Below are positions 9,652 through 30,149 of a stretch of DNA of 64,000 nt, one piece after another. Both the position numbers and the translations under genes were made by a program. The stretch is from the IMG/VR virus record IMGVR_UViG_3300035670_000036. The stretch is one strand, 5' to 3'. Source of the stretch: an uncultured virus (IMG/VR IMGVR_UViG_3300035670_000036) (taxonomy: Duplodnaviria > Heunggongvirae > Uroviricota > Caudoviricetes). The notes beneath the pieces were generated by a model that saw nothing but the letters and a program-made list of their open reading frames with translations, had not been told where the DNA came from and ran no database searches. Within the stretch, counting starts at the first letter, position 1. Each line of letters starts with the position of its first letter.

Positions 9652-9679
9652 GCCCGGTTCTAACCACCATTAGATCCGG

Positions 9680-10490
9680 GCTTTGCCCGACGACGTACAG
9701 GGCACCTACCGACAGACCGAACTACAGACAGACCGACGCACCTACCTAACGACAGGGCATTGGACAGGCGTACATTAGACAGGACAATCTCGCGGGGCCC
9801 TACACACATCACATACATTACACACATCATACACATCACATACATTACATACACATGATACAATAGATTAGATAACATGATAGATAGATATAATAAATAA
9901 GATACAATAGAAATATATAATGAATTGCCTGATAAGATATGTACCATGTATATTAGATGTATATTAGATGTTATATAGATTAAATGATATACCTTATGTT
10001 GTATAGATGTTATATAGATTAAATGATGTTATATAGATTAGATGATAGATGTATTAAATGTATATTAGATGCTATATAGATTGTTTAATAAATGTTATAT
10101 GATTATTAGGATATGTTATTTAAATGTTGTATATTAGATGTATGTTAGATAGATGTTATATAGATGATAGATGTTATATAGATTAGATGATATGTTGTAT
10201 GAATGATAGATGTATAGTAAGATATAATTTAAATGATAGATAGTATGTAATAGATGTATACTGGAATAGATTAGTATAATAGATGTTGTATGTAGATGAT
10301 AGGATGTTAGATTAGATGTTTACTGTATGCTGGATAGATGGTATGGTAGTTGATAGAGCCCCGCGGAAAAACAGCACAACGGAACCGACGGACGGACGGA
10401 ACCGACGGACAGACCCAACGAAAGGACGGACAGATCGACGGACGGATAGATCGACGGACGGATAGGATGAATCGATTGACGGACGAATTT
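9680..10490. repeat. non-coding low-complexity region: GACAG/CCGAC block, ACAT block, TAGAT/ATGT block, then GACGG block
   Basis: Degenerate 4-5 nt repeats in successive blocks, bounded by CGCGGGG (9791) and CCCCGCGG (10359). Confidence 0.75.
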
Positions 10491-10636
10491 CAATCGGGAT
10501 GAGAGGAAGGAAGCCCGAGTAAATTTTTTTAGGGTCTAATTATGGTATATTGGGCAAAATAAAGGTAGTAATGATAGGAATTTATAGTTTTATGTTGTAT
10601 ATTTGAACCATTGAATAACCACTTAAATATTTGCAC

Positions 10637-11200
10637 ATGAAAAATGTATTAGCTATTTTTGTATTTTCTTTTTTCGCGTCTTTCGCACAGGCGCAAACCG
10701 TAGAGGTGACACCTGAAGAGGTCACCTTGATTGCGAAGCTCGTCATCGGCGAAGCCGAAGGCGAGAGCTTTGAAGGAAAAAAGATGGTCGCTGAGACCAT
10801 TCTTAATCGCCTGGTAAAGGGCGGTTTCGGTAGCTCGGTAAAGGGCATCATTGAATTTCCGGGACAATACGATGCCCGCTGGAATGCGTCTCTTTGGGCG
10901 AGGGAGCCTAAGCAAGAAGACCTTGACGCAGTGAAAGAGGCAATTGAAAATCCAAGTCTTCCAATTGATGTGGTGTTCTATGTAAACACCAAGCACCTGC
11001 CAAGAGGTAACAATTGGAGGGAGAAGTTAGAAAGCCTCGGACACTTTAAGACAGAGGGGGCACACAGCTTCTACTATGGGTTCGAAGGTAAGGACGGAAC
11101 CATGAGACGCAAATTGATTAAGCTGCCTAAGAGCATGACGGAAATCAATGTAGCGAGGGACAACACGAGGACGGAGTTAATACTAAGGATTCGCGAATAG
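10637..11200 (+). CDS. SleB/Hydrolase_2-type cell wall hydrolase with signal peptide
   Basis: LIAKLVIGEAEGESFEGKKMVAETILNR...IIEFPGQY...GAHSFY. Confidence 0.88.
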   Translation: MKNVLAIFVFSFFASFAQAQTVEVTPEEVTLIAKLVIGEAEGESFEGKKMVAETILNRLVKGGFGSSVKGIIEFPGQYDARWNASLWAREPKQEDLDAVKEAIENPSLPIDVVFYVNTKHLPRGNNWREKLESLGHFKTEGAHSFYYGFEGKDGTMRRKLIKLPKSMTEINVARDNTRTELILRIRE

Positions 11201-11454
11201 CGAATCCTCTTTTAAAATCAAGTGAGGCCTTGCAAGTAAGTAGGGCCTCACATATATCGAGTGGCCTCTCAAGTAAGTGGGAGGCTGCGCGAATATGACT
11301 AGGGCTGAGAGGAAGGAAGCCCGAGTAAATTTTTTGAGGGCAAAATATGGTGTTTTTGGCAAAATATATGTACCAATATTATGAATTTATAGTTTTCTGT
11401 TGTATATTTGTAGGGCAGTCGCAAATGAGCAACTGGCTTAAACTTTGAAACAAT

Positions 11455-11727
11455 ATGGAAACAATCTTTTTTGTGGTTTCGGCTAAATTTACAGTCCAAA
11501 ACCAACAGACAGGCAAGGCGAAAAATTACTTTGTTGAGGTAATCGTCAAGTATTCACAGGAGACAGATAGCAACACCGCTATTGCATACCTTGAAAATCC
11601 GAAAAGGAGAGAAGGTGTGCAAATCTTCGAAAATTTCCCTGTACAGGTGAAAGAGTACATTCTACAGGGGGGCACCTGGAGAAAATGTACGATTCAAGAA
11701 TTGAATATCCTTGAATCACAGAATTAA
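11455..11727 (+). CDS. hypothetical cassette protein
   Basis: Follows a TATATTTG promoter box. Confidence 0.7.
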   Translation: METIFFVVSAKFTVQNQQTGKAKNYFVEVIVKYSQETDSNTAIAYLENPKRREGVQIFENFPVQVKEYILQGGTWRKCTIQELNILESQN

Positions 11728-11799
11728 GACAAGCCCCGCGGTGACAGAGCGGGGCTATCTTTTGTTTCAAAGTAATATGTAACTACTTAAATATATTAT

Positions 11800-11943
11800 A
11801 TGGAATTCACAAGTTTTGAAGAGTTTTTAAATGTCAAATTAGACTCTTCCTTTTTAGAGCAGTGGGCAGATGACTTAGCCCTAAATGAATTGTTAGCTGA
11901 AATTGGAGAAGAAGAAGACGAAGACGAAGAGGACGAAGAGTAG
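11800..11943 (+). CDS. 47-aa highly acidic peptide, copy 1 (not in the ORF track)
   Basis: MEFTSFEEFLNVKLDSSFLEQWADDLALNELLAEIGEEEDEDEEDEE; identical copy at 13217. Confidence 0.75.
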   Translation: MEFTSFEEFLNVKLDSSFLEQWADDLALNELLAEIGEEEDEDEEDEE

Positions 11944-12168
11944 AACGGAAGCCCCCGGACGGAAACGGACGGGGGCTCTCTCTTATTCAATGGAACGCAG
12001 CCGGAGAGGGCTAGCGTATTTCAATCGGGCTGAGAGGAAGGAAGCCCGAGTAATTTTTTTGAGGGCAAAATATGGTGTTTTTAGCAAAATATATGCGAAA
12101 ATACTTGATTTATTCAATTATATATTGTACTTTTGAGTCATTATTAATCACTTAAACATTTTTCTATT

Positions 12169-12411
12169 ATGATTACGATTGAGTTTAAAAGGAATGGTTC
12201 TTTTTTCGTTGCCTATGTTCAAAGACAAACTGAGAAGGCATACTTGTGTGAAATAATTTGCATAACTGGCATCTCTGATGCAGTAAAATTAAAAAAATTA
12301 ATCTGGCTTCCTAAGTCAGCGGTTAAAGATAACAAGTTACAATTCTGGCTTGTAAGCAAGTTGGACCTAAGCGGTTCGTGGGAAGGCGTTTCACCTTCCT
12401 ACCCAAACTAA
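12169..12411 (+). CDS. hypothetical cassette protein
   Basis: TACTTTTG promoter and AATCACTTAAA leader upstream. Confidence 0.7.
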   Translation: MITIEFKRNGSFFVAYVQRQTEKAYLCEIICITGISDAVKLKKLIWLPKSAVKDNKLQFWLVSKLDLSGSWEGVSPSYPN

Positions 12412-12658: not shown

Positions 12659-12884
12659 AAGAAGCCCCGGCCGGAAACGGTCGGGGTTTTTTTATGCTTA
12701 AACGGAACGTATCGAAACGGAATGGATGCCGACGGATTTCAATCGGGCTGAGAGGAAGGAAGCCCGAGTAATTTTTTTGAAGGCAAAATATGGCATTTTT
12801 GGCAAAATATATGTACCAATATTAGGAATTTATGTTTTTATATTGTACTTTTGATTTATCAATTAATAATTAAATATTTCAGTT

Positions 12885-13139: not shown

Positions 13140-13216
13140 ATCTAACAAGCCCCGCGGTGACAGCGCGGGGCTATCTTTTGTTTCAAAGTAATATGTAACT
13201 ACTTAAATTATTATAT

Positions 13217-13360
13217 ATGGAATTCACAAGTTTTGAAGAGTTTTTAAATGTCAAATTAGACTCTTCCTTTTTAGAGCAGTGGGCAGATGACTTAGCCCTA
13301 AATGAATTGTTAGCTGAAATTGGAGAAGAAGAAGACGAAGACGAAGAGGACGAAGAGTAG
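13217..13360 (+). CDS. 47-aa highly acidic peptide, copy 2
   Basis: Coding sequence identical to 11800-11943. Confidence 0.75.
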   Translation: MEFTSFEEFLNVKLDSSFLEQWADDLALNELLAEIGEEEDEDEEDEE

Positions 13361-13591
13361 AACGGAAGCCCCGGACCGGAAACGGTTCGGGGTTTTTTTT
13401 TGCCTAAACGGAACGTATCGAAACGGAACGGATGCTGACGGATTTCAATCGGGCTGAGAGGAAGGAAGCCCGAGTAAATTTTTTGAGGCCTAAATATGGC
13501 GTTTTTGGCAAAATATATGCGAAAATACTTGATTTATTCAATTATATATTGTACTTTTGAGTCATTGTTAATCACTTAAATTTTTATTATT

Positions 13592-13921: not shown

Positions 13922-14149
13922 CAGAAGCCCCGGACCGGTAACGGTTCGGGGTTTTTTTTTGCCCAAACGGAACGTATCGAAACGGAACGAATGCCAACGG
14001 ATTTCAATCGGGCTGAGAGGAAGGAAGCCCGAGTAAATTTTTTGAGGCCTAAATATAGCGTTTTTAGCAAAATAATTGAGTAAAAACTTGCATTTTACAG
14101 TTTTATATTGTACTTTTGAGTCATTGTTAATCACTTAAATATTTTTATT

Positions 14150-14557: not shown

Positions 14558-14795
14558 TTAAAATAACAGAAGCCCCGGACCGGAAACGGTTCGGGGTTTT
14601 TTTATGCCCAAACGGAACGTATCTAAACGGAACGGATGCCGACGGATTTCAATCGGGCTGAGAGGAAGGAAGCCCGAGTAATTTTTTTGAGGGCAAAATA
14701 TGGCGTTTTTGGCAAAATATATGTACCAATATTAGGAATTTACAGTTTTCTGTTGTATATTTGAGGCATAGTTAATTACTTAAATAAATCAAGTT

Positions 14796-15005
14796 ATGAG
14801 AGATTTAAAGGATTTTAAAAAAGGTCAATTAATAGCCTTAATCAACGAACTAGAAAACCAACTGTTAACAGCGGTTGATGACTCAAAAAAAACAGCGGAA
14901 AGATTAAAACCAGAGGATCTACGCGAAAAATTAGCTTATGAGGCAGGTTCCCTCGTAGGCTCAATAAAATGGGCATTAAGGACAATAAACCATTTTAAAA
15001 AGTAA
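14796..15005 (+). CDS. hypothetical cassette protein
   Basis: Promoter and leader upstream. Confidence 0.7.
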   Translation: MRDLKDFKKGQLIALINELENQLLTAVDDSKKTAERLKPEDLREKLAYEAGSLVGSIKWALRTINHFKK

Positions 15006-15256: not shown

Positions 15257-15489
15257 CGAACGGAAGCCCCGGACCGGAAACAGTTCGGGGTTTTTTTATG
15301 CTCAAACGGAACGTATCGAAACGGAACGGATGCCGACGGATTTCAATCGGGCTGAGAGGAAGGAAGCCCGAGTAAATTTTTTGAGGGCAAAATATGGTGT
15401 TTTTAGCAAAATATATGTACCAATATTAGGAATTTATAGTTTTCTGTTGTATATTTGAGGCATCATTAATCACTTAAATATTTTCACTT

Positions 15490-15900: not shown

Positions 15901-16158
15901 ACGAAACCACCCCGGCCGGAAACGGTCGGGGTTTTTTTTTGCCTAAACGGAACGCATCAAAACGGACCGACAACCGGACGGAACGGATGCCGACGGATTT
16001 CAATCGGGCTGAGAGGAAGGAAGCCCGAGTAAATTTTTTGAGGCCTAAATATGGCGTTTTTAGCAAAATATATGTACCAATATTAGGAATTTATAGTTTT
16101 CTGTTGTATATTTGTAGGGCAATCGCAAGGAAGCGAAAGCACTAAACAAAAAACAGTT

Positions 16159-16958: not shown

Positions 16959-17153
16959 ATGTGATAGATGGCTGGGAATTAGATTAGATTAGTTCCCCGC
17001 CGGATTTTGCTAGGGCTGAGAGGAAGGAAGCCCGAGTAAATTTTTTGAGGCCTAAATAACGTATAATAGGTAAAATAAATAGGCAAATAGTTGATTAATT
17101 CAATTTTATTTTGTACTTTTGATTCATCGTTAATTAGTTAAATAAATCAAGTT

Positions 17154-17576: not shown

Positions 17577-17806
17577 ACCAAAGAGCCCCGGTCGAAAACG
17601 ACCGGGGTTTTTTTATGCCCAAACGGAACGTATCGAAACGGAACGGATGCTGACGGATTTCAATCGGGCTGAGAGGAAGGAAGCCCGAGTAAATTTTTTG
17701 GGATCAAAATATGGCGTTTTTAGTAAAATATATATACCAATATTAGGAATTTACGTTTTTATGTTGTATATTTGAGGCATAGTTAATTACTTAAATAAAT
17801 CAAGTT

Positions 17807-18106
17807 ATGAGAACATTAGAAATGGCTGCGGTCGAATTAAGAGAGGTAATGGCTGCAAAAGCAATCTTAGAGGCAAAAGAAAAAACGCTTCGTAATGAAA
17901 TTATTGAAGGTTTACAAGCCCAAAATTTAACCTTATTAAAAGTAGGTGGGTTTACGGTATCCATTAGAAGGAACAAAACATGGACTTATTCAAAATGGGT
18001 TAGAACGTTGGAAAAAATGCTTAAAACTAGAAAAGCGAACGAGCAAAATAGCGGAGTAGCTACCTTTGAAGAAACGCCTACATGGCAATTTTTAAGCGCA
18101 AAGTAA
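17807..18106 (+). CDS. coiled-coil/beta protein, paralog of 18420 (distantly of 35720)
   Basis: MRTLE...VGGFTVSIRRNK.WTYSKWV.TLEKMLK is shared with 18420. Confidence 0.8.
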   Translation: MRTLEMAAVELREVMAAKAILEAKEKTLRNEIIEGLQAQNLTLLKVGGFTVSIRRNKTWTYSKWVRTLEKMLKTRKANEQNSGVATFEETPTWQFLSAK

Positions 18107-18419
18107 AACAAAAGGGGTAGGCGAAAGCCTACCCTACCTTAACAAATTTTTAACATTTACAAACATTAATCTTAGTCCTGAACAAAACGGACCGACAACC
18201 GAACGGAACGGAACGGTTTAGCAGACACTCCCATGCCGGCGAATTTCGCTCAGGGCAGGGCGGAGCCCTGCCTGAGTAAATTTTTGGCGGGGCAAATCTT
18301 AACATTTCTTTAACTAAAACATCGAAAATATTAACACTTATTAACTACTTGGTATTGTTTTTTTGTGTATCTTTGTGACGCAGTCGCAATGAAGCGAAAG
18401 CGTTAAATAAACAAGTTAT

Positions 18420-18746: not shown

Positions 18747-18810
18747 AACAAAAGGGGTAGGCGAAAGCCTACCCTACTTTAACAAATTTTTAACTTTTAA
18801 ATCATAAATC

Positions 18811-19047: not shown

Positions 19048-19253
19048 GAACAGCACAGAGCCAGGTCGGAGCGAATTTCGCTCCGGCAAGGCTAAAGCCT
19101 TGCCTGAGTAAATTTTTGGCGGGGCAAATCTTAACATTTCTTTAACTAAAACATCGAAAATATTAACACTTATTAACTACTACTTATTGATTTTATTCTT
19201 ATCTTTGTCATGCAGTAGCAATTAAGCGAGAGCGTTAAATAAAAACAAGCACC

Positions 19254-19442: not shown

Positions 19443-19870
19443 TGCGTCCAAAGGATACAACCCACCGAACGGAACGGTTCGGTGGGATTTCCTATGCCAG
19501 CGAATTTCGCTCAGGGCAGGGCGGAGCCCTGCCTGAGTAAATTTTTGGCGGGGCAAATCTTAACATTTCTTTAACTAAAACATCGAAAATATTAACACTT
19601 ATTAACTACTTGGTATTGTTTTTTTGTGTATCTTTGTGACGCAGTCGCAATGAAGCGAAGGCGTTAAATAAACAAGTTATGTACTTATTCATTTTAATTT
19701 TCTTTTTTGTTGTTTGGGCTCCTATTAGTTTATACGCTTTAATTCTAAATAGTGAATCCGATGGTGACACAATAAAAGAAACTTTATTTAAGTTTTGTGC
19801 TGGCGTATCTTTATGGTTAATTCTAATTATTGTTTTTACAACTTTAATAATTTAACAGAACGTTAACACT

Positions 19871-19908
19871 AAGGGTATTGCATAATACATTCAATACCCT
19901 TATCTTTG
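19871..19908 (+). promoter_or_regulatory. Bacteroidota-type promoter (TTG...TATCTTTG) embedded in an inverted repeat; representative of about 15 copies up to 45 kb
   Basis: AAGGGTATTG-N11-CAATACCCTT running into TATCTTTG; matches the Bacteroidota -33 TTG / -7 TAnnTTTG consensus. Confidence 0.8.
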
Positions 19909-19943
19909 CTTTATAATTTTTTAATCACTTAAACTTTAAAACA

Positions 19944-20180
19944 ATGGTAACTTTAGTAGAAAAAAAAGGCACTTTAAGAACTCTTCAATCAGCCATCTTG
20001 AAATCACATTCAGAATATGTTTTGTTAGATTTTACAGATTTAGAAGACTTGGCATTCAATTTACAAGTAGATATAGAAACGGAAGAGGACGAACTGGAAA
20101 CGGAACATAATAGATTTTATATGGACTATCAAAAAAGCGTAGATGCAGACTACTACGCATTCAGACAGTCGCAAATGTAA
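19944..20180 (+). CDS. hypothetical acidic protein
   Basis: Promoter and leader upstream. Confidence 0.7.
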   Translation: MVTLVEKKGTLRTLQSAILKSHSEYVLLDFTDLEDLAFNLQVDIETEEDELETEHNRFYMDYQKSVDADYYAFRQSQM

Positions 20181-20246
20181 AACGGAATTTATAAACAGGG
20201 AGGGCTTAAATGCTCTCCCTATCTTAAACATCTTAAAATAATTGTT

Positions 20247-20678
20247 ATGAAGGTTAATGAAGTAAAAGTAAGCTATAAAAAAGAAGTTTTTGGCAAAGTA
20301 TTAAATTCTTTAAATGCCGTTGATTATTGTAGGAACATTCCGGAATTTGAAAACAGAATGGAGTATCAAGAAGTATTTGCAGTCGTATATTTAGATAATG
20401 CAAATAACATTCTTTGCCATCAAATTATAGGTATTGGTAACATCACCGGGGCAGTAGTGGATCTAAGAATTATTTTTTCCACCGCGCTTAAAACATTATG
20501 CACTAGTCTAGTTCTTTGCCACAATCACCCATCTGGAACTTTAAAAATATCAAAAGCAGACTTTGACGTAACGAACAAAGTAAAGCAAGCAGGTGCATTA
20601 TTTGATATACAGGTATTAGACCACATTATACTAACTAAAAATAGTTATTTGTCCTTTGCGGACGAAGGACACTTATAA
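20247..20678 (+). CDS. radC: RadC-like JAB domain protein
   Basis: E...HNHPSG.L..S.AD...DI.VLDHIIL...YLSFADEG. Confidence 0.92.
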   Translation: MKVNEVKVSYKKEVFGKVLNSLNAVDYCRNIPEFENRMEYQEVFAVVYLDNANNILCHQIIGIGNITGAVVDLRIIFSTALKTLCTSLVLCHNHPSGTLKISKADFDVTNKVKQAGALFDIQVLDHIILTKNSYLSFADEGHL

Positions 20679-21009
20679 AATACCATTGTTTTAAGTTTAC
20701 CCGTCAAATGTAAAAGTTTGGCGGGCTTTTCTATGCTAGTGAATTTCGCTCAGGGCAGGGCTTTAGCCCTGCCTGAGTAAATTTTGGCGGGACCCCTTTT
20801 TAACATTTCCTTAACTATACCAGGGAAAACATTAACACTCCCTTAACTACTTTGTATTGGTTTTATGCTTATCTTTGTAGTGTTATAAAGAGAGAGGGTA
20901 AATAGAAAGGCAAAAAAAATAATTTAAAAAAAGTTTGCCTTAAATTTGGAAATTAGAAAAATACCTCTTATCTTTGCAAAAGATTCTTAATCACTTAAAC
21001 AAACAAGTT

Positions 21010-21714
21010 ATGAAATTAGTCGGTTTTAATTTTGTCCATGGCTCAAATGTACATTCAATAGATTTGAGATTGTCAGGTACTAAAAAATTAGGCTATGCCT
21101 TTATTATCCAAACGTATCACTTTGATATGGAACAAGTTGTAAATAATACGCTTGTTTTGGATTCAGGCACATGTTTTAATTGCCCTTTAAGTTTCAACCA
21201 AAATAACGGCAAAACAGGCGGCTGCTATACCCACAAAGGAAATTTAAGAAAGGGCTTAGGTTCTAAATTGAGGTCGTTAAATAAGCAATATAAAGCCGGT
21301 AAATTGCTTAATAATTACGATACGGTTTTAAGCGGTTTAAACAAATTTGCAAAGGACGTAAAAATTTCCTTAGTACGGTTTGGGACGTATGGCGAAGCGG
21401 TTACATTACCTTTAGACTTATTAAACGGTTTAGCGAAGCTATCAAAGCGCAGAACGGGTTATACGCACCAATGGAACAAACCAGAGTATAAGGAATATTC
21501 TAAATTCTTAATGGCTTCGACGCACAATGTTTTTGAGGTTAACATTGCAAAGGATTATGGATTCAGGACGTTCAATGTAGGACAAATAGAAAATAGTGTA
21601 ATGTGTCCATCTTCGCCAACAATCAAAAAAGAAAAAAGAACGCCATGCTCGGATTGTGGATTGTGCGCAGGAAATTCAATACAGGCAAAGGATATTTATA
21701 TTCCTAAACACTAA
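21010..21714 (+). CDS. Cys-rich phage protein (GP88-like, putative Fe-S binding), paralog of 26997
   Basis: CFNC...GGCY, RFGTYGE, GYTHQW, MAST, CP...CSDCGLC. Confidence 0.65.
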   Translation: MKLVGFNFVHGSNVHSIDLRLSGTKKLGYAFIIQTYHFDMEQVVNNTLVLDSGTCFNCPLSFNQNNGKTGGCYTHKGNLRKGLGSKLRSLNKQYKAGKLLNNYDTVLSGLNKFAKDVKISLVRFGTYGEAVTLPLDLLNGLAKLSKRRTGYTHQWNKPEYKEYSKFLMASTHNVFEVNIAKDYGFRTFNVGQIENSVMCPSSPTIKKEKRTPCSDCGLCAGNSIQAKDIYIPKH

Positions 21715-21795
21715 AAAAAATATGGGAGAATGTTTGGATATGTCAAATATTCTCCCTATCTTTGAAACATATTAATCACTTAAATACTTAAAAAA

Positions 21796-22041
21796 ATGAA
21801 TAACAAGCATGTTTGGGAAGGTTGGACAGTTCAGGATTTTATCAGTGAATTAGAATGGTTGTTCGATATGATTATGAGTGGGAAGTCACATATTAAGCCC
21901 TTTAAAGACGACAAGGAACTAAAAAAATGGGTTATGGAAAATCAGCCAGGCTATAAGAAACACATTCCAGAGGTCTTTGAGTACTTTAAAAAGAAAAGGA
22001 TTGATTTCCTATTTTCGACATTCAATGAAATAAAGAGATAG
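21796..22041 (+). CDS. hypothetical protein
   Basis: Hairpin promoter and leader upstream. Confidence 0.7.
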   Translation: MNNKHVWEGWTVQDFISELEWLFDMIMSGKSHIKPFKDDKELKKWVMENQPGYKKHIPEVFEYFKKKRIDFLFSTFNEIKR

Positions 22042-22363
22042 TAACTTGTTTTTTGCCCCGTTGGATCCAGTGTCCGACGGGGATTTTGTATGCCAGTAAA
22101 TTTCGCTCAAGGCAGGGCTAAAGCCCTGCCTGAGTAAATTTGGCGGGATCCCTTTTTAACATTTCCTTAACTATACCAGGGAAAACATTAACACTCCCTT
22201 AACTACTTTGTATTGGTTTTATGCTTATCTTTGTAGTGTTATAAAGAGAGAGGGTAAATAGAAAGGCAAAAAAATAATTTAAAAAAAGTTTGCCTTAAAT
22301 TTGGAAAATAGAAAAATACCTCTTATCTTTGCAAAAGATTCTTAACCACTTTAAATATTTGCT

Positions 22364-22861
22364 ATGAAGTCCATTAATGAGTTTATTTCTAATTTGTCAG
22401 CAAGAAACACATTTGCAGCTATTCAATACGAATCAGCAGCAGATAAGGTTGCTAAAAAATTAACCTATGGTTGGTTGGCAGCCAATGGTATTACAAGAGA
22501 AGAGGTGCGTTGCATTACTTTCCGTACTTGTCAGTTAGGCAGCACTTATAAGACAAGAGTAGAGAATAGAGAAGGCGAAGGAACGGTTATTAATCCAGGT
22601 TGGGCGCGTTCGTTAGATAGCAAAGGGCACTTATTTGACAATCCTAAGAACGGTAAAAAGTTTCTACGCGTGTTCTTAGTGCCAGGTAAACAGGTTACTT
22701 GGGGCTTTCCAGACGCAACAACAGAACGGAACCGATTAGCTTTAGTACAGAGAATGAAGGAATTAGAGCCACAAACGGAATCCGATACTTTTGAAGTCAG
22801 AATGATTGAGCTTGATTGTATCCAGAGTTTGAAGGCAAAAGAAATTTTTCAATTAGCGTAA
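22364..22861 (+). CDS. hypothetical protein
   Basis: Promoter and leader upstream. Confidence 0.75.
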   Translation: MKSINEFISNLSARNTFAAIQYESAADKVAKKLTYGWLAANGITREEVRCITFRTCQLGSTYKTRVENREGEGTVINPGWARSLDSKGHLFDNPKNGKKFLRVFLVPGKQVTWGFPDATTERNRLALVQRMKELEPQTESDTFEVRMIELDCIQSLKAKEIFQLA

Positions 22862-22942
22862 AAAAAGTAGGGGGAATGTTTGGATATGTTAAATATTCCC
22901 CTTATCTTTGCAACATATTAATCACTTAAATACTTAAAAAAA

Positions 22943-23335
22943 ATGAACAAGGAAGGTTTAAAAATTTCGCTTACAAATGAATTGAGCGAAGAGATTTTTT
23001 TCAATGCTTTATGTAATTCAATGGATTATATGTGTAGCTCGTATGGACTTGACTTAAGGTACAAACAATCGGACTACCTTAAGGCAAAAGATAAATTAAC
23101 TAACCCATGTATTGAGGATGTTTGGATGCAGATGCTAAGGGATGGAGCTAGAATTGGATTGAAGGATCTTGAGGGTGGAGAAGATACGGCTTACATTACA
23201 TTATCTACAATACATGAAAGAGTTAAGAATGTTCCTATTACCGATTTGTTAGATATGATAGATGAAAATGATGATGCCACTACGGGAGAAGTTGTTTTAC
23301 AGATTGTATTCCTTAATGATATTATATATGGATAG
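22943..23335 (+). CDS. hypothetical protein
   Basis: Hairpin promoter and leader upstream. Confidence 0.75.
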   Translation: MNKEGLKISLTNELSEEIFFNALCNSMDYMCSSYGLDLRYKQSDYLKAKDKLTNPCIEDVWMQMLRDGARIGLKDLEGGEDTAYITLSTIHERVKNVPITDLLDMIDENDDATTGEVVLQIVFLNDIIYG

Positions 23336-23422
23336 GATTTAAAAAAGATGGGAGAATGTTTGGAAATGTAAAATGTTCTCCCTATCTTTGCATCATAATT
23401 AATCACTTTAAATTTTAAAACA

Positions 23423-23647
23423 ATGCAGTATCAAATTAAAAGAGAATGTTGGAATGAAAAAACATTTAATGGATATACAGATAATCCATATTGGAAAATT
23501 GAGTTGAAAGGTTTAGGATTTGTATTAAATGATGATGGCAGAGTATGGAGTTCTATTGGTATAAAAATGACAGAATTTTATTTAGAGGATATTAAGACAA
23601 TTATAAAGGAATGTAAACTTAATATTGATATTCTTTCACCACTTTAA
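23423..23647 (+). CDS. hypothetical protein
   Basis: Hairpin promoter and leader upstream. Confidence 0.65.
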   Translation: MQYQIKRECWNEKTFNGYTDNPYWKIELKGLGFVLNDDGRVWSSIGIKMTEFYLEDIKTIIKECKLNIDILSPL

Positions 23648-23658
23648 ATTTTAAAAGC

Positions 23659-23847
23659 ATGTTAGAAAAGAATGATGTTAGATGTAATTGGTGTGGCTGG
23701 GAAGGTTATGAGGATGAATTAGATTTGATTGTTGATTTATCTGATGATAATATTACACATGATGTACAGTATTTTAAAGGATGTCCTAAGTGTAAGATAG
23801 ATTCTTATTTGATGGATATTGATAATGATAACCCCGCGGAAAATTAA
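23659..23847 (+). CDS. small zinc-ribbon protein
   Basis: CNWC...CPKC. Confidence 0.65.
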   Translation: MLEKNDVRCNWCGWEGYEDELDLIVDLSDDNITHDVQYFKGCPKCKIDSYLMDIDNDNPAEN

Positions 23848-24211
23848 GAAAATATTAACATAGGGGGAATTGACTTTCTCAAATATTCCCCCTATCTTTG
23901 CAGCATATTATTGACCACTTAAAATTTAAAAACATGAAAGAAATAATGTTAAATGAAAAGAATCCTCTTAATGGTAGTTGGCTATGTTGGATTCCAAATA
24001 CACCTGTTGCTTATTCTTTAAAAGGAAGTAAAACAGCTAAAAAATTTTGCAATAAGATAAACAAAGCATTTGATGAAGGCAAAATTAAAATTGATGATTC
24101 TGGACGCTTAGTTAAAGTAGCTTAACATAATTTTAACATGGGAGGATTTTGTTTTCTCAAATATCCTCCCTATCTTTGCAGCATATTATTTACCACTTAA
24201 AATTTAAAAAC

Positions 24212-24508
24212 ATGAAAAGCGAAGTAATTGTAAAAAGACGTGAAGATTTTGGCCATGACTGGATTTTGGTCCTCGAAGCAAAAAAGAATAAAATCCTGAG
24301 ACGCAAAAGTTTTTACTTAGGTCAAGATGTAAAATTTTGTAGTAGAGTATTGGGAATGTCCCCGCGAGATGTTGTCGATGAAATTGGTTCTGGAGATTTT
24401 ACCAAAGATAGTAACTTAAAATTATTAGGCAAATTTATTAGTAAGCGTTTAGGATTATCCTCTAAGTCCATAGATGAATTAGACGCGTGGGATTTGGGCT
24501 GCCAATAA
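24212..24508 (+). CDS. hypothetical protein (start probably MKSEV)
   Basis: Leader ACCACTTAAA upstream of the ATG. Confidence 0.65.
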   Translation: MKSEVIVKRREDFGHDWILVLEAKKNKILRRKSFYLGQDVKFCSRVLGMSPRDVVDEIGSGDFTKDSNLKLLGKFISKRLGLSSKSIDELDAWDLGCQ

Positions 24509-24855
24509 TTCTTTAAAGATAACATAACTTGTTTTTTTGCCCCGTCGGATTTAGTGTCTGGCGGGGATTTTTTATGGCCAGTGAATTTCGCTCTAGCAGA
24601 GCTCCGCTCTGCCTGAGTAAATTTTGGCGGGACCCCTTTTTAACATTTCCTTAACTATAATAGGGAAAACATTAACACTCCCTTAACTACTTTGTATTGG
24701 TTTTACCCTTATCTTTGTGTTGTTATTAAGAGAGAGAGAGGGTAAATAGAAAGGCAAAAAAATAATTTAAAAAAAGTTTGCCTTAAATTTGGAAATTAGA
24801 AAAATACCTCTTATCTTTGCCAAAGATTCTTAACCACTTTAAATTTTTAAATAGT

Positions 24856-25593
24856 ATGATTATTTCAGAAGTAAAAGGCGCAAACTTAAGCGCGAAGTAT
24901 GTAGCTATTAGCTCACAAAAATTGATTAATGACCTTAAGTCTAATGGCTTTGAGCTTTCAGGCTTTCAAACCAAAAAGAAAAGTGCTAAAAGTTCCGCGC
25001 ACCTTATTAGAATGAGGTACAATAAGGAATTAATCTTAAATGGCGAAACCTTATATCCGGAGGTCATTATCCGCAATTCGTTTGACGGAACGGTTCGGTT
25101 CGAGTGCGCAATGGGTATATTCAGATTAGTATGTTCAAACGGACTAACCGTATCAGATTCTAGGTTTGAATCTAAAATTTATAAGGTTAGACACTTTGGA
25201 CAGAAAGCAATGGATATTTCGGAAAAGGTTATTTCGGGTGAAATTGTGGCTAACTTTTTTGAGTTGCTACCTAAACTTGAGGAGTACGTATTGCAGCAAA
25301 TGTCTGTAAACTTGACCGAAGAGAAGGCTATTGAATTTGCCATGAAGGCTGCTGCTTTGCGTTTTAAGAGAGCCTTTACAGAAAGTGAAGCCAAATTATT
25401 ACTCACTTCAGAAAGGTTCGCAGATGATGATAATACGCTTTGGGCTATTCAAAATCGTCTTCAGGAAAAATTGATTAATGGGTTTGGGCTTGGGGTTATT
25501 CGCGGTAGAAAATATTCCTCACTAAAAGACCCTAATAAAATTGCGGTTATTAATGAGAGGTTAGCTAATCTTTCTATGGAGTTCGCAAATTAA
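24856..25593 (+). CDS. DUF932 family protein
   Basis: IIRNSFDGT...GIFRLVCSNGL...R..D....LW...NR.QE.LI.G. Confidence 0.85.
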   Translation: MIISEVKGANLSAKYVAISSQKLINDLKSNGFELSGFQTKKKSAKSSAHLIRMRYNKELILNGETLYPEVIIRNSFDGTVRFECAMGIFRLVCSNGLTVSDSRFESKIYKVRHFGQKAMDISEKVISGEIVANFFELLPKLEEYVLQQMSVNLTEEKAIEFAMKAAALRFKRAFTESEAKLLLTSERFADDDNTLWAIQNRLQEKLINGFGLGVIRGRKYSSLKDPNKIAVINERLANLSMEFAN

Positions 25594-25681
25594 TTTAAAA
25601 AAATATGGGGGAATGTTTGGAAATGTAAAATGTTCCCCCTATCTTTGCAGCATATTATTGACCACTTAAAAATTAAAAAAC

Positions 25682-26092
25682 ATGAGAAGGATTAAAGTTA
25701 GATTTTCTTTACAGCGTGGAGAAAATTACATGAAATGGAAAGTAATTGATAGTAATGGGGTTGTCACATATTATAGCCCATGCGACGTTCAATTAATCAT
25801 GAGAGGTTGCACGTTAAGGAACAATAAAAAATTAGCTACTAAGATTTACAATGGCGAAAGTACGAAGGTAGTATGTGCTTGGATTTTATGTGATGAGTTG
25901 GAAATTAGACATTCTGATTTTATTAAGGAGTCTGATTTTAAAATCAAATACAATCCTAAAATTGCCCCCCACTGGACGTTCCTGGGTGAGGATATAGATG
26001 ATAGGTATGTTTCTTACATTGTTTCGGTTGACTTTAAGTTACATATTGATTTGATTCCCGACGGTATGAAATTGGGGGGATATAAGAGTTAA
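25682..26092 (+). CDS. hypothetical protein
   Basis: Hairpin promoter and leader upstream. Confidence 0.7.
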   Translation: MRRIKVRFSLQRGENYMKWKVIDSNGVVTYYSPCDVQLIMRGCTLRNNKKLATKIYNGESTKVVCAWILCDELEIRHSDFIKESDFKIKYNPKIAPHWTFLGEDIDDRYVSYIVSVDFKLHIDLIPDGMKLGGYKS

Positions 26093-26199
26093 GAATCCCC
26101 ACGGAAAATTAACAAAACATTAACGATAGGGGTATTGCATAATATATCCGATGCCCCTATCTTTGCACTATAATTATTCACCACTTAATATTTTAAATC

Positions 26200-26682
26200 A
26201 TGCACAGTCTTCATTTAGTTAGATTAAAAGCAGATTCTCATTCCGATGCTTATTCCATAGTAGAAGATTATCTATTCGATTGGGGTACAGAGAATAACTG
26301 GTTTACTATCCTGGGTTCTCATTGCAAAGAGGATAAATCATTTTCAGATTCTTTTGACGAGAAATTTGTGACTAAAGATGAATTGCTCAATAACCCTGAT
26401 AGATTTAATAGCCTAACAAATATATCTGATTACTACAAAGAGGCATTTGAAAAGGTAGCAAATTTTAAAGGTACTGTTTTAGTTGAACCTATAGATTGGC
26501 TTCTTGCATTAAATCATTGTAAGGAACAACATCAAATAGCCTTACTTTCAGACCCTAATAAAATTGATATATGGTCGGATACTTTCTATGATGGTTCAAT
26601 AGATGAAAATGGAATTACAGAGCTTTACACAGGTGCAGATAGTCAATTAACTTTTATTGTGTTGGTCGATATGCACTCGTAA
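26200..26682 (+). CDS. hypothetical acidic protein
   Basis: Hairpin promoter upstream and terminator downstream. Confidence 0.7.
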   Translation: MHSLHLVRLKADSHSDAYSIVEDYLFDWGTENNWFTILGSHCKEDKSFSDSFDEKFVTKDELLNNPDRFNSLTNISDYYKEAFEKVANFKGTVLVEPIDWLLALNHCKEQHQIALLSDPNKIDIWSDTFYDGSIDENGITELYTGADSQLTFIVLVDMHS

Positions 26683-26996
26683 ATAAAAACCCTCCTGGTT
26701 AATGCTAGGAGGGTTTTTTTATGGCCAGTGAATTTCGCTCTAGCAGAGCTTTGCTCTGCCTGAGTAAATTTTGGCGGGATCCCTTTTTAACATTTCCTTA
26801 ACTATACCAGGGAAAACATTAACACTCCCTTAACTACTTTGTATTGGTTTTATGCTTATCTTTGTAGTGTTATAAAGAGAGAGGGTAAATAGAAAGGCAG
26901 AAAAATAATTTAAAAAAAGTTTGCCTTAAATTTGGAAATTAGAAAAATACCTCTTATCTTTGCCAAAGATTCTTAACCACTTAACTTTTAAAAATT

Positions 26997-27704
26997 ATGT
27001 TAAAGCAAATTAATTTCAGATTAGGCGACGTTATCCACTGCATTGATATCAAGCCTAGCGCTACGCCTAAGCTCGCTCAAAAAGGCGAAATTATCCTACA
27101 AACTTATCATTTTTCCATTGACCAGATTAATGAAGGCAGCCTAAAAAATGATTCTAAGGTGTGTTTTGATTGTAAGTTTTCTTATAATGCAAACGGTGGA
27201 AAATCAGGCGGTTGCTATACCCATGCGAACGGATCCTTAGCTTGGGGATTGGTTGCAAAATTAAAGGCTCTAAAAAGGCGTTTGGATAACGGATTAATCC
27301 CGGAAGGAACGGAAGGCGTAATGGAACAAATTACGAGCGTTACAAAAAAGGTTAAAATATCCTTTGCTCGAATGGGAACGTATGGGGAGCCTACCTTATT
27401 ACCTTTTGAATTGCTAGAACAAATAAGGCCTTTGGTAGGCAAAGTATCAGGCTATACTCACCAATGGCATAAACCAGAGAATAAGCAATATGCGAAATAC
27501 TTAATGGCAAGTACGCATAATATCTTTGACGTAAAATTGGCCGAAGGTTTAGGATTCAGGTCTTACAATGCTAGCCAGGTGGAAGGTGCTATCCTTTGTC
27601 CATCAGCTCCAACCATAGCAAAGGAGAAGCAAGTAAGTTGTGCTAAATGTGGATTGTGTGAAGGTGGAAAGAAAGCTAAGAATATTTACAATGTAATCCA
27701 TTAA
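26997..27704 (+). CDS. Cys-rich phage protein (GP88-like), paralog of 21010
   Basis: CFDC...GGCY, RMGTYGE, GYTHQW, CAKCGLC. Confidence 0.65.
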   Translation: MLKQINFRLGDVIHCIDIKPSATPKLAQKGEIILQTYHFSIDQINEGSLKNDSKVCFDCKFSYNANGGKSGGCYTHANGSLAWGLVAKLKALKRRLDNGLIPEGTEGVMEQITSVTKKVKISFARMGTYGEPTLLPFELLEQIRPLVGKVSGYTHQWHKPENKQYAKYLMASTHNIFDVKLAEGLGFRSYNASQVEGAILCPSAPTIAKEKQVSCAKCGLCEGGKKAKNIYNVIH

Positions 27705-27789
27705 CATAATCTTAACATGGGGGGATTTGGTTTTCTCGAATATCCCCCCTATATTTGCATCATATTATTCATCACTTAAAAAACAAAAA

Positions 27790-28119
27790 ATGGATATACC
27801 ATCAGCAGAAGAATATTATTCAAAAACAATGTTCCCAGCTTTGTCTAAATATAAACCTGATGAAATTAAATTATGGTTTGAGACAAATACAGATGCACAA
27901 CAATCAGTAAACATAATGATTGAGTTCGCTAAACTTCATGTACAAGCAGCACTTGAATCTGCATACAAAAATTCTATAATGTATAAAGATTTAGGAGAAG
28001 GAGAAGATGGAAAAATATGTTATGAAATGGGAGATATTTTCTATGATGAATATGACTATCCCATAGCAATTAGTAAAAATTCTATTTTAGATGCTTATTC
28101 ACTCAAAAACATTAAATGA
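27790..28119 (+). CDS. hypothetical protein
   Basis: Leader then ATG at 27790. Confidence 0.6.
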   Translation: MDIPSAEEYYSKTMFPALSKYKPDEIKLWFETNTDAQQSVNIMIEFAKLHVQAALESAYKNSIMYKDLGEGEDGKICYEMGDIFYDEYDYPIAISKNSILDAYSLKNIK

Positions 28120-28415
28120 TATGAAAAGTAAATATGATAATATATTAAAGGCATACGAAAAGATACTAGGCATGGCAGAAGCTAAGTTACAAAATGCCAT
28201 TGACAAAAATAAAGAATGGGATATTGAACATTATAAAACTGATGTTCAAACGATAAAGAATGAAATTGAGTTCACAAATAATCTTAAAAAGAATGAACTT
28301 GAAATCAAAAAAAGTTAAATTAAATTAACAAAACATTAACGATAAGGGTATTGCATATTATATCCGATACCCTTATCTTTGCATCATAATTAATCACCAC
28401 TTAATATTTAAACTC

Positions 28416-28748
28416 ATGGCAATTTACGGAGATGGAAAGCACAATGAAAACATGGAACACATTGAGCAGCCAATTCAAATTTTTGATTTTTTCCTTGACC
28501 AAAAAATAACTACATGGATGCGCACCAGATTTTGTATCGAAGCGACATCAAGAGAAGAAGCGATAGAGAAAGCTAAGAAAGATTATGAGAAATTATGTGA
28601 GCAAGAAATTTGGGAGGAGATTCCAGACGTTCAAGAAACAATGACTGTAAGAGACAACGCTGGTTTTAGCACCGAAGAAGTTTACATAGATGAATTTCCT
28701 ACAATTAAGATTTGGGAGAATGGCATGGATTCATTAGCGGATTTTTAA
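28416..28748 (+). CDS. hypothetical protein
   Basis: Hairpin promoter and leader upstream. Confidence 0.7.
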   Translation: MAIYGDGKHNENMEHIEQPIQIFDFFLDQKITTWMRTRFCIEATSREEAIEKAKKDYEKLCEQEIWEEIPDVQETMTVRDNAGFSTEEVYIDEFPTIKIWENGMDSLADF

Positions 28749-28835
28749 CAAAACATTAACGATAGGGGTATTGCATAGTATATCCAATACCCTTATCTTT
28801 GCCACATATTAATCACCACTTAAAAAACAAAAGAC

Positions 28836-29183
28836 ATGAACAAAGAATTTGTAAGTTATGAAATGGCTTTAGCACTTAAACAGTTGGGGTTTGATGAACC
28901 TTGTTTAAGGTATTATGATTATTTTTCTAAATTAGTGGAATCTGGAGTTTATGAATGTAAAGCACCACTGTACCAACAAGTGTTTACATGGTTTAGAGAG
29001 AAGTATGATTTAGATTCCTACATAAAACCTGCTTGCTTAGAAACTAAAAAAGTATATGATTATTATATTTGGTTTAATAATAAAGAAGGTGAGAGAGATT
29101 TATTTCTAGGAATGAATAATGAATACACTTACAAAGAAGCGGAAATTGAATGTTTAAATAAATTAATCACCACTTTAAAATAA
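28836..29183 (+). CDS. dispersed member of the KEFV..E.AL.LK.LGFDEPC paralog family
   Basis: Same three conserved blocks as the 41216-44004 array. Confidence 0.8.
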   Translation: MNKEFVSYEMALALKQLGFDEPCLRYYDYFSKLVESGVYECKAPLYQQVFTWFREKYDLDSYIKPACLETKKVYDYYIWFNNKEGERDLFLGMNNEYTYKEAEIECLNKLITTLK

Positions 29184-29189
29184 AAAAAA

Positions 29190-29495
29190 ATGCACGTTTC
29201 AGAAAAAAATGTAGAAGGCACTTATTTCCATGGAGATACTATCAATGCTTCGGTTAAAGAGCTAACTAAAATTCTTGGTAAACCTACCTATGAAAATAAA
29301 TCAATAGTAGAGAAAATAAACTTTGAATGGGTTCTGGAAACTTCAAATGGGCACGTTGTTACTTTGTACACTTGGAAAGAATATAGAAGGTTTAAAAAGA
29401 GCGAGGTAGTTAACTTGCACATAGGAGGATTTAAAAAGTCAGCTACCTCAATAGCCAAAGGAGAACTAGAATTTTTGTTAAACTTAAAAAGATAA
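29190..29495 (+). CDS. hypothetical protein
   Basis: ORF in operon. Confidence 0.65.
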   Translation: MHVSEKNVEGTYFHGDTINASVKELTKILGKPTYENKSIVEKINFEWVLETSNGHVVTLYTWKEYRRFKKSEVVNLHIGGFKKSATSIAKGELEFLLNLKR

Positions 29496-29674
29496 TAACC
29501 ATGATAACTTTAAAGGAAATTTCAAGAAGGGATTTAGTAGAAGTTTTAGAATTATTACTTTCAGATGAGTTTGATTCATCAGAGCTTGTTTACTTGACCG
29601 AAGAAGAACTCATTAGGTCTATAATTACCGCAGCTATTTTCTACAAGGAAGCAGCTAACGATAAATAAAAAGTA

Positions 29675-29748
29675 AGTCAGGTGGCTCAATGGTAACGCAA
29701 TGAACAGGGAAGGCTGCATAGATACAGGTTCGAATCCTGTCCTGACTT
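29675..29748 (+). ncRNA. tRNA-like RNA 1 (non-canonical anticodon arm)
   Basis: AGTCAGG/CCTGACT acceptor; ACAGG-TTCGAAT-CCTGT T arm; bulged ATG-AA-CAG-GGAAGG-CTG-CAT arm. Confidence 0.7.
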
Positions 29749-30149
29749 CAAAAGGTTAATAGATGTTTAAGTGGTTTGGCTCCTGGCAGTAGATGTCGGG
29801 AGTTTTTTTGTTGCCAGTGAATTTCGCTCAAGGCAAGGCGAAGCCTTGCCTGAGTAAATTTTGCCCCTCCCCCTTTCCAGGATGGCCAGGGATCTATGGG
29901 GGAAAATCCAGGCGTTAACATTTTTTAACATTTCTTTAAGATCCTTTTAACATTTGAAATTAGGATATTAGATAGATTGGGTGTATCTTTGCAATGTCAA
30001 TTAGATGATAGGGAATAGATGAGATATGGTATGGGTTACATTTTACTACATTTCATTTTAACATGACTTTAACATTTTAGGATTAGGATATTAGATAGAA
30101 TGTTATTATCTTTGCGACATATTATTAACCACTTTAAATTTTTAGAATC

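Follow-up and report, generated by a model that had tools for sequence, protein, structure and literature searches.

Why should one hairpin recur 19 times, on a single strand, between the small genes of a phage? This question is raised by the uncultured virus record IMGVR_UViG_3300035670_000036, of which a stretch of 64,000 nucleotides (nt) was analyzed as a whole (hereafter the window). An initial annotation of this stretch had described a gene-cassette array delimited by conserved bulged hairpins and had named three possible analogues, that is, the attC sites of integrons, the promoter and stem-loop composites (PeSLs) of T4-type phages, and the hairpin promoters used by the virion RNA polymerase of phage N4. 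Here, we combined motif, covariation, and gene-family analyses with a comparison of six related records and of environmental contigs. We propose with moderate confidence that the array consists of PeSL-like composite regulatory modules, which would shuffle by homologous recombination in a lineage of Bacteroidota phages.

A co-oriented array of hairpin-promoter modules

Scanning the window with the motif GCCYGAGTAAWTTT at up to one mismatch returned 19 matches, exclusively on the + strand and lying between 10513 and 29861, against a mean of 0.10 in dinucleotide-preserving shuffles, none of 100 of which reached 19. A repeat finder recovered the same copies (families D6 and D11). The annotated array of about 19 kb was thereby borne out, as were its division into 11 type A and eight type B hairpins and the order of parts within a unit, namely hairpin, TAnnTTTG box, leader, small open reading frames (ORFs), terminator, and ACGG-rich spacer (table 1). 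The repeated sequence exceeds the length of the hairpin, reaching up to 235 nt in the type A intergenic unit and 216-217 nt in the type B units. The 11 type A units come first and span 559-1007 nt each, followed by the eight type B units, the seven of which that are bounded by a following hairpin measure 429-3090 nt.

Related arrays were retrieved from IMG/VR contigs with a 15-mer from the hairpin right arm, and six of these records (G001-G006) were compared with the window. By pattern, they hold 6, 15, 4, 14, 15, and 10(+1) hairpin copies, respectively; one type A copy of G002 (at ~7540-7560), which bears GAGCAAA for GAGTAAA, was missed by the pattern and brings that genome to 16 hairpins. 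Each record carries one co-oriented array, complete or cut at the contig end, in which the order is type A block, type B block, the same terminal copy, and a C-rich insert, wherever these parts are present. Among GenBank phages, neither megablast of 10400-30000 nor blastn of 17600-20000 produced a match, and tblastn with the RNA ligase of the window found only matches below 30% identity, while a search for more distant relatives through the subtilase gene returned only close ones (79-97% identity). Sequencing runs containing this stretch derive from subsurface, freshwater, wastewater, and soil metagenomes. In a set of 185,579 species genomes, the motif occurred at 43 loci, five of which are true hairpins of type B located on one contig, JAJTER010000205.1 (5383 nt), binned into a metagenome-assembled genome of Saprospiraceae. 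The other loci were chance matches or a conserved coding stretch, and use of the motif by bacterial hosts was accordingly discarded as a candidate; the Saprospiraceae-binned contig either points weakly to the host clade or is an artefact of binning.

The box TAnnTTTG, which we take to be the Bacteroidota -7 consensus, occurs 96 times on the + strand and 33 times on the - strand of the window, with about 42 expected per strand, and it follows all 19 hairpins at a fixed distance, likewise in the six relatives. Measured from the hairpin GCC, this distance in the window is 84 nt in 10 of the 11 type A copies (85 nt in the other) and 98-99 nt in seven of the eight type B copies, the box of terminal hairpin 19 lying at 136 nt because of the extra C-rich insert, which is also found in the five relatives whose contigs include the terminal copy. 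Across the seven genomes, 34 of 38 type A copies have the box 83 nt from CC; among the type B copies, leaving aside the terminal ones, 33 of 38 have it at 96-98 nt. Changes in the length of the T-run are offset, the hairpin-to-box distance being kept. Hairpin and promoter are one unit. Conservation within the module peaks in the right arm of the hairpin and the adjoining T-run, in the promoter boxes, and in the leader, and the 19 hairpins appear to form the most conserved block of this repeated intergenic module.

The hairpins had also been described as sitting after a terminator and before a promoter. The promoter holds for 19 of 19; a canonical GC stem with T-run was detected just upstream of nine of the 19 by a simple terminator scan and of four more by eye, and at 19066 no separate terminator was read (by eye) between the ORF stop and the hairpin. 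T-poor spacers rich in ACGG, AACGG, and GACGG are found at 10360-10480 and, at a distance of 40-60 nt, ahead of most type A hairpins, and are conserved in kind in the relatives (e.g., GAACGGAAGCGAACG). At the other end of the module, a leader motif (TTAATCACTTAAA or AACCACTTAAA) precedes many start codons by ~10-25 nt, as at 12147, 13571, 14130, 15469, 21775, 22921, and 28815; a loose form of it, A[CT]CAC?TT[TA]AA (family D14), was counted 29 times on the + strand and 14 times on the - strand. This motif resembles the start-associated sequences of some mycobacteriophages, and it is one of the blocks where the recombination junctions described below fall.

Inside and after the type B cassettes lies a third class of promoters. 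These combine TTAACA-N5-TTAAC boxes with an inverted repeat, which has the -33 TTTG within it and borders directly on the -7 box TATCTTTG. All 25 copies of TTAACA-N5-TTAAC in the window are on the + strand, 24 of them within 18139-32147. Outside this lineage, the box TTAACATTTCYTTAAC was found 21-22 nt before TAnnTTTG in many viral contigs among the matches listed, and in several of these an ordinary terminator hairpin with T-run stands directly before it, in the place taken here by the conserved hairpin. Only five of the 132 matches listed (of at least 132) carry the hairpin, all five from G006. These comparisons suggest that the hairpin is specific to this lineage and the TTAAC-box promoter type widespread, and TTAACA-N5-TTAAC looks like a widespread phage promoter element, perhaps an activator site or an alternative -33 site. 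The type B region further contains a 216-nt unit in four copies of 64-98% identity (20780-20995, 22136-22351, 24620-24835, and 26767-26982), composed of two TATCTTTG boxes ~99 nt apart with a conserved purine-rich segment between them that ends in the hairpin AAGGCAAA...TTTGCCTT; the first promoter of this unit may give a short leader or a small RNA.

Covariation and loop inversion in the hairpins

Type A hairpins exhibit a 7-bp stem, TCGGGCT/AGCCCGA, and an 11-nt purine-rich loop (GAGAGGAAGGA), and type B hairpins a 12-bp GC-rich stem (CTCAGG(G)CAGGGC, loop, GCCCTGCCTGAG) with a loop of 3-4 nt and, in some copies, a bulged G or A. When folded as DNA, type B was clearly stable (-19.6 kcal/mol, z-score -3.8, for hairpin 14). 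The 45 type B copies of the seven genomes comprise 36 distinct sequences, and 37 type A copies comprise 26; alignments were built from these. Standard pairs fill 96.1% of the 612 type B stem cells, against 24-58% when the partner is slid by 1-3 columns, and double-sided changes affect three pairs and 21 cells, converting GC to AU at two inner positions and AU to GC at one outer position, with no G-U pair among the 612 cells. None of 500 shuffles reached either the covariation score or the number of doubly changed cells, and 99 of 500 reached the number of doubly changed pairs. In type A, 87.3% of the cells are paired and a single pair is doubly changed (3 cells). The covariation of the type B inner stem and the variability of its loops, both noted at the outset, are therefore real and extend to the relatives.

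The flanks GAATTTCGCTC and GAGTAAATTT are invariant among the copies read but for one variant, the GAGCAAA of G002. The annotated left flank RATTTC stands in nine of the 11 type A copies and is absent from the other two. Pairing of the outer flanks, AATTT with AAATT, is neither supported nor refuted by covariation, because these segments are nearly invariant and the right-side A-to-T variant seen in seven of the 36 type B sequences has no compensation. The single unpaired C of the initial annotation did not survive closer comparison, being replaced by a CG/T internal loop and a bulged G, neither of which is conserved. Of the 36 distinct type B sequences, 19 lack any base in the bulge column, and the CG/T internal loop gives way to perfect pairing in one copy and to near-perfect pairing in another.

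Several further pairings were considered and set aside. Exact complements sought for the type A loop, as candidates for loop-to-loop pairing, matched only the loops themselves, and an outer GCCA/TGGC pairing seen in the fold was dropped since its two sides show no covariation in the relatives. In the window, the right arm of type B could engage in an attenuator-like pairing with GGCGGGGC/GCAGGGGC further downstream; this was dropped because G006 and G003 have GCGGATCC or GTGGATCC at that position, which makes the pairing impossible there. Comparison with Rfam gave no match to the hairpin at E values up to 1, the tRNA gene before the last hairpin being the sole match above its gathering score.

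The loops themselves vary in a regular manner. The 36 distinct type B sequences carry eight loop sequences, which constitute four reverse-complement pairs (GGA 6 and TCC 4; AAA 11 and TTT 4; GAA 2 and TTC 1; TAAA 5 and TTTA 3), a pattern that indicates loop inversions. In one orthologous hairpin of G002 and G004, AAA versus TTT is the sole difference, inside a 13-kb stretch of 98% identity, and the terminal copy of G006 is a perfect palindrome through its flanks (AAATTTACTCAGG...CCTGAGTAAATTT). Loop inversion and correction of the arms are mutational behavior of DNA palindromes, produced by template switching; in chloroplast non-coding DNA, small inversions are likewise associated with hairpins, and template switching at quasi-palindromes corrects imperfect arms. 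Those are mutational phenomena and not functional systems, and they account for the pairs of loops found here. The flips and the arm correction show that neither the loop sequence nor the internal loop is required; they also mean that part of the covariation may be mutational and not selected, and they tell nothing on whether the hairpin functions as DNA or as RNA.

This loop behavior bears on the suggested analogy to N4, according to which the hairpins would be extruded and used as promoters by a virion or phage RNA polymerase, an explanation we regard as scarcely credible. The N4 promoters are described with a stem of 5-7 bp, a 3-nt loop, conserved loop and stem bases, and a purine at -11 (PMC4496689). 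The type B inner hairpin, with a short GC-rich stem of 6-7 bp and a loop of 3-4 nt, is similar to these early promoters, the AT-rich flanks would favor extrusion, and the array occupies a probable early region. However, the array loops GGA, TCC, AAA, TTT, GAA, TTC, TAAA, and TTTA are unconserved and invert, the type A loop has 11 nt, there are 19 copies versus three, and a canonical host-type promoter stands at a fixed distance after every hairpin. Moreover, a sequence-family search detected no RNA polymerase or sigma factor family in the ORFs of the window (72 compared with PHROGs and 61 with Pfam) or in those of two relatives, covered over ~156 kb to the left and right of the array (G002 1-72 kb and G003 1-84 kb; 107 ORFs in Pfam and 104 in PHROGs, leaving out 26 small G003 ORFs and G002 91.5-98.6 kb), with two ORFs of the G003 tail-fibre region (1056 and 1485 aa) having no family match.

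A different role at the DNA level constitutes a serious alternative, because the hairpin base and flanks are more conserved than a terminator needs. Under this explanation, which we consider possible though doubtful, the ~48-bp imperfect palindrome (AATTT-CG-CTCAGG ... CCTGAG-T-AAATT) would be read by a phage or host protein as duplex or cruciform and would act as an operator, enhancer, or boundary element for the promoter 83-98 nt downstream, for instance, in early shut-off or boost. Lying behind terminators and ahead of promoters, the hairpin would be mostly untranscribed, which favors such a role, and the near invariance of flanks and stem base combined with the freedom of upper stem and loop, the distance to the -7 box fixed across diverged genomes, the 21 double changes set against the lack of G-U pairs, the GC-rich stem between AT-rich flanks, and the restriction of the hairpin to this lineage while the TTAAC-box promoter type is widespread are all consistent with it. 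Nevertheless, no candidate for the binding protein was found, the type A stem of 5-7 bp with its 11-nt loop is poorly suited to cruciform extrusion, and the half-site spacing varies by 15-17 bp. In addition, the loop flips and perfected arms are mutational signatures expected of any palindrome, and the conserved spacing may be inherited.

Cassette differences and the position of junctions

Cassette bodies were clustered by tblastx into the families f2-f10, which revealed a right-hand backbone (f5 f2 f2 f3 f3 ...) common to the genomes and a left type A block that differs by whole cassettes (table 1). Two of the signs of shuffling initially reported are real, since a sub-cassette is duplicated within the window (11789-11984 and 13206-13401, 93% identical) and paralogous units are recognized as tblastx families. 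Between G002 and G004, sequences that are 98-99.7% identical on both sides of the type A block are unrelated across it; the right edge of this divergent stretch lies ~620 nt past a hairpin, inside the f5 cassette, and small patches such as a swapped terminator occur further right.

Environmental strains were sampled through contigs from four public runs, comprising DNA and RNA libraries, that were aligned to 10300-30000 and whose ends follow the repeats. One cassette is removed by the joint 13579>14141, and other joints are 12463>16454, 16140>12141, 16140>13568, 13560>17790, and 23401>26107. Backward joints were also observed, namely 27737>25628, 28392>23635, and 29976>24811 (two DNA runs, with a near-identical 30000>24811 in the RNA library X18); these are equally compatible with circles, with tandem copies, and with a different order of the genes. 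All endpoints of the joints listed here fall in leader or promoter segments; 29 further joints stand outside this list and may include one within a hairpin. Contigs of the X18 RNA library also cover the segments upstream of promoters and from terminator to hairpin, for which read-through or DNA carry-over is possible.

Switch points were located by three-way comparison of informative sites. Module 1 of G005 follows module 1 of the window up to the hairpin left arm and module 2 from the T-run onward, so that the indel of the hydrolase cassette has its junction within the invariant core of the hairpin. Module 5 of G005 is a mosaic that changes affiliation three times, first at the hairpin, next at the GCAAAATA block, and then at the leader; the f8 duplicate of G002 is 100% identical from the hairpin stem, via the next hairpin and promoter, to the leader TTAATCACTTAAAT; and upstream of f5, the window departs from its relatives right after the -7 box. 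Overall, junctions map to the GCAAAATA promoter block, to the -7 box or leader, and to the hairpin core, as well as to a terminator and the interior of an ORF. Shuffling as first proposed therefore stands with respect to whole-cassette differences and to the other orders and contents seen among strains and relatives, but the breakpoints are not tied to the hairpins; they spread over several conserved blocks, as homologous recombination between repeated modules would produce. The hairpin core (~35 nt) alone is common to otherwise dissimilar modules and for that reason is often the site of crossover.

This distribution also bears on the integron-like explanation, in which the hairpins would be attC-like single-strand sites and the cassettes would be moved by a site-specific recombinase. 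The resemblance is evident in the co-oriented imperfect hairpins with conserved base and variable top that lie between cassettes, in the whole-cassette differences among relatives, and in three junctions inside the hairpin core or at the stem. Even so, we judge this explanation very improbable. Every cassette has its own promoter and terminator, and neither an integrase nor attI nor a common Pc promoter was detected; the extrahelical bases are not conserved, no fixed crossover point exists, many junctions lie in the leader, the -7 box, the terminator, or an ORF, and the hairpin core, being the longest identical stretch, would be used by homologous recombination anyway. The absence of a visible recombinase from the window, already remarked in the initial annotation, persisted after the PHROGs and Pfam scans, with no integrase, resolvase, serine or tyrosine recombinase, or HUH enzyme family matched by its ORFs. 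The search beyond the window gave the same outcome, as neither these enzymes nor a virion RNA polymerase appeared in the ~156 kb of G002 and G003.

Gene content of the lineage

The scanned relatives encode a structural set comprising a T4-type terminase, the gp20 portal, the gp23 capsid protein, a prohead protease, gp25, and the tail sheath and tube, together with replication genes (5'-3' exonuclease, DnaB-like helicase, primase, and family A DNA polymerase) and recombination-type genes (gp32-like, RecA/UvsX, SbcCD-like, a PD-(D/E)XK nuclease, and an endonuclease VII-like protein). Within the array, 20 cassette ORFs of at least 100 aa were scanned (10631-30719), six of which had a PHROG match and six a Pfam match (table 1).

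Table 1. Coordinates of the array, its modules, and associated features, with the cassette order of the type A block
Feature	Coordinates	Strand	Description
Whole array	10482..29862	+	19 co-oriented hairpin-promoter modules separating 19 small-ORF cassettes
Type A hairpin 1	10482..10534	+	Left arm variant GGGAT; first module, after low-complexity tract
Type A hairpin 2	11288..11340	+	Left flank GAATATGACTAGGG
Type A hairpin 3	12013..12065	+	Repeat family D6 and motif scan
Type A hairpin 4	12731..12783	+	Repeat family D6 and motif scan
Type A hairpin 5	13437..13489	+	Example of the type A DNA fold (7-bp stem, 11-nt loop; weak)
Type A hairpin 6	13996..14048	+	Repeat family D6 and motif scan
Type A hairpin 7	14641..14693	+	Repeat family D6 and motif scan
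Type A hairpin 8	15335..15387	+	Repeat family D6 and motif scan
Type A hairpin 9	15992..16044	+	Repeat family D6 and motif scan
Type A hairpin 10	16999..17051	+	Left flank GGATTTTGCTAGGG, same in relatives
Type A hairpin 11	17652..17704	+	Repeat family D6 and motif scan
Type B hairpin 12	18234..18284	+	Loop GGA; family D11
Type B hairpin 13	19066..19116	+	Loop TAAA; left flank is a second small palindrome, GGAGCGAATTTCGCTCC
Type B hairpin 14	19495..19545	+	Loop GGA; example of the type B DNA fold
Type B hairpin 15	20734..20784	+	Loop TTTA
Type B hairpin 16	22091..22141	+	Loop TAAA, the reverse complement of the hairpin 15 loop; inner stem identical to that of hairpin 15
Type B hairpin 17	24575..24625	+	Inner stem GCAGAGC/GCTCTGC, loop TCC; 2x2 internal loop in outer stem
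Type B hairpin 18	26722..26772	+	GCAGAGC/GCTCTGC, loop TTT
Type B hairpin 19, terminal copy	29812..29862	+	Loop GAA; preceded by tRNA and terminator
tRNA gene	29675..29748	+	Directly before last hairpin; Rfam match above gathering score
Type A promoter part, example	14672..14799	+	T-run, GGCAAAATAT repeats, -7 box TATATTTG at 14756-14763; leader with the TAATTACTTAAAT variant of the leader motif, ahead of ATG
Intrinsic terminator T1, example	13364..13397	+	15-bp stem, T-run; ends cassette 40-60 nt upstream of type A hairpin
Similar terminators	14580, 15274, 15909, 19461, 20700, 22056, 24540, 29778		Terminator scan
Third promoter class region	19850..31100	+	Inside and after type B cassettes; TTAACA-N5-TTAAC boxes and inverted repeat
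Cell-wall hydrolase	10631-11200		Cassette ORF
RadC	20247-20678		Cassette ORF
phrog_2554 paralogs (two)	20974-21714, 26997-27704		Cassette ORFs
DUF932	24817-25593		Cassette ORF
DUF6497	28416-28748		Cassette ORF
Api92-like domain	30150-30719		Cassette ORF
Type A block, window			- f4 f6 f4 f9 f10 f4 f7, then f5
Type A block, G005			f4 f6 - f9 f6, then f5
Type A block, G002			f4 f4 - f8 f7 f8, then f5
Type A block, G004			f4 f10 - f7, then f5

Comparison with PeSLs and the proposed mechanism

Among the analogues suggested at the outset, PeSLs proved the closest match, with repeats of promoter and stem-loop, cassette indels, and junctions in the repeats. PeSLs are described as promoter and stem-loop composites of the hyperplastic regions of T4-type phages, in which crossovers were mapped in the loop, in an AT-rich region, and between the -10 box and the ATG, while middle promoters underlie a second class, PmSL (Arbiol et al. 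2010, PMC2839356; Comeau et al. 2014, PMC4122927). Relative to the promoter boxes, PeSL stem-loops take one of three positions, between them, over them, or upstream (PMC2839356). A hallmark experiment for PeSLs is the detection of mini-circles, which are excised by recombination between flanking elements. The likeness concerns the repeated intergenic host-type promoter with a stem-loop, the location beside small ORFans in the hyperplastic region of a phage whose head and tail genes are of T4 type, close relatives differing by insertions, deletions, and replacements with crossovers inside the repeats, and a second class with upstream activator-like boxes; the third promoter class of the window, moreover, places a stem-loop between the promoter boxes, as in the commonest PeSL type. 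The corresponding features were found in the array itself, whose small ORFs are mostly unassigned and whose cassette indels and replacements have junctions in the repeats, with some elsewhere (e.g., the +620 edge in the f5 cassette).

The array differs from PeSLs in its Bacteroidota-type TAnnTTTG promoter and longer module (~150-235 nt), in a hairpin that lies 83-98 nt upstream of the -7 box and is additional to a separate canonical terminator, in its host phylum and replication genes (a family A polymerase here), and in a nearly invariant hairpin base and flanks, whereas PeSL stem-loops are loosely defined (G-run, loop, C-run). Open-access papers and bioRxiv yielded no account of an array of this kind, nor of PeSL-type elements in a Bacteroidota phage, and a search of the open-access literature for TAnnTTTG in connection with early promoters found nothing. 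The host-takeover module of phage SPO1 is similarly made of many small early genes, (nearly) each with a strong host-type promoter and a terminator, as here; to our knowledge, no conserved palindrome lies upstream of each of its promoters.

On the PeSL-like reading, each module, consisting of terminator, ACGG-rich spacer, hairpin, upstream boxes, Bacteroidota-type -33/-7 promoter, and leader, would turn a small early or accessory cassette into its own transcription unit. The recombination set of the relatives (the RecA/UvsX homologue and the SbcCD-like and endonuclease VII-like proteins) resembles the T4 machinery and, acting on 19 repeats in the same orientation, would allow cassettes to be gained, lost, duplicated, and re-ordered by homologous recombination, with the crossover falling in whichever conserved block two modules have in common. 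The hairpin is tentatively taken as the stem-loop of the module, an insulator or attenuator that would stop read-through from the upstream cassette, serving as back-up to the cassette terminator and standing alone where none is present, as at 19066. The RNA stem of type B is strong, and termination or attenuation of transcription by the hairpin is putative.

Several observations weigh against this reading, in particular against the hairpin as a terminator. The terminator scan flagged none of the 19 whole hairpins, which are not canonical intrinsic terminators, because GTAA/TAAA parts the stem from the T-run, which begins 4-6 nt beyond the GC stem and not within the 0-2 nt that define such terminators. 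The type A fold is no better than those of shuffles (-7.7 kcal/mol, z-score -1.3, for hairpin 5), that is, the stem is weak; a second terminator is redundant where nine hairpins (13 by eye) follow a strong one; and the conservation of the flanks GAATTTCGCTC and GAGTAAATTT appears to exceed the needs of a mere terminator. The conserved hairpin-to-promoter spacing could stem from shared descent or gene conversion and not from function. Finally, the clamp, gp55, MotA, and AsiA families were undetected in the relatives and their DNA polymerase belongs to family A, so that the lineage appears T4-like in morphogenesis and recombination genes only.

We also considered whether the hairpin base is recognized by a structure-specific phage protein, such as the endonuclease VII-like protein, an HNH-type nuclease, or a cruciform-binding factor, that would nick or mark the 19 boundaries and thereby direct recombination. 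We hold this quite unlikely; if true, the array would be a recombinase-free but targeted platform for cassette exchange and not a passive by-product of homology.

Features flanking the array

Before hairpin 1, a non-coding tract (9650-10480) passes through three-letter alphabets in succession, from A/C-rich sequence with few T to ACAT-type sequence with few G, then to ~480 nt of TAGATG-like repeats that are almost C-free (0-2 C per 100 nt over 9900-10300), and lastly to the T-poor ACGG-rich spacer. The tract also occurs in G005, G002, and G004 and sits at the left edge of the hypervariable block; as a guess, it could be an origin, a boundary, or a packaging-related site. Downstream of the array, 41598-44004 holds a tandem of five or six small paralogs (phrog_12005/phrog_25117), and an RNA ligase (55570-56700), a polynucleotide-kinase-like ATPase (50873-51307), and a metallophosphatase (52615-53379) are neighbors, which suggests a T4-like RNA repair set. 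In G002 1-60 kb, several late (structural) genes have TATTTAT(T) in common in their upstream regions, as in ATATTTATT and CTATTTATTG, a candidate late-promoter motif. These regions do not share GAGTAAATTT, and the hairpin flank was rejected as a late promoter.

Implications

Read as PeSL-like modules, the array would extend beyond the T4-type phages of Proteobacteria the idea that regulatory repeats make accessory cassettes plug-and-play and self-expressed, here in an uncultured phage lineage of freshwater, wastewater, and subsurface habitats with Bacteroidota-type promoters. It would represent an unusually clean version of the system, in which the element is highly conserved and natural variation is visible among environmental strains. 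The PeSL authors left open whether the stem-loops only terminate (PMC2839356), and a hairpin with an invariant base, a covarying stem, and a flipping loop may serve as a test case for whether such stem-loops are terminators or are read by proteins. The cassettes, which include RadC, DUF932, a cell-wall hydrolase, and many unknowns, probably carry anti-defence or host-takeover genes, and the array would thus be a place to seek new phage counter-defence genes.

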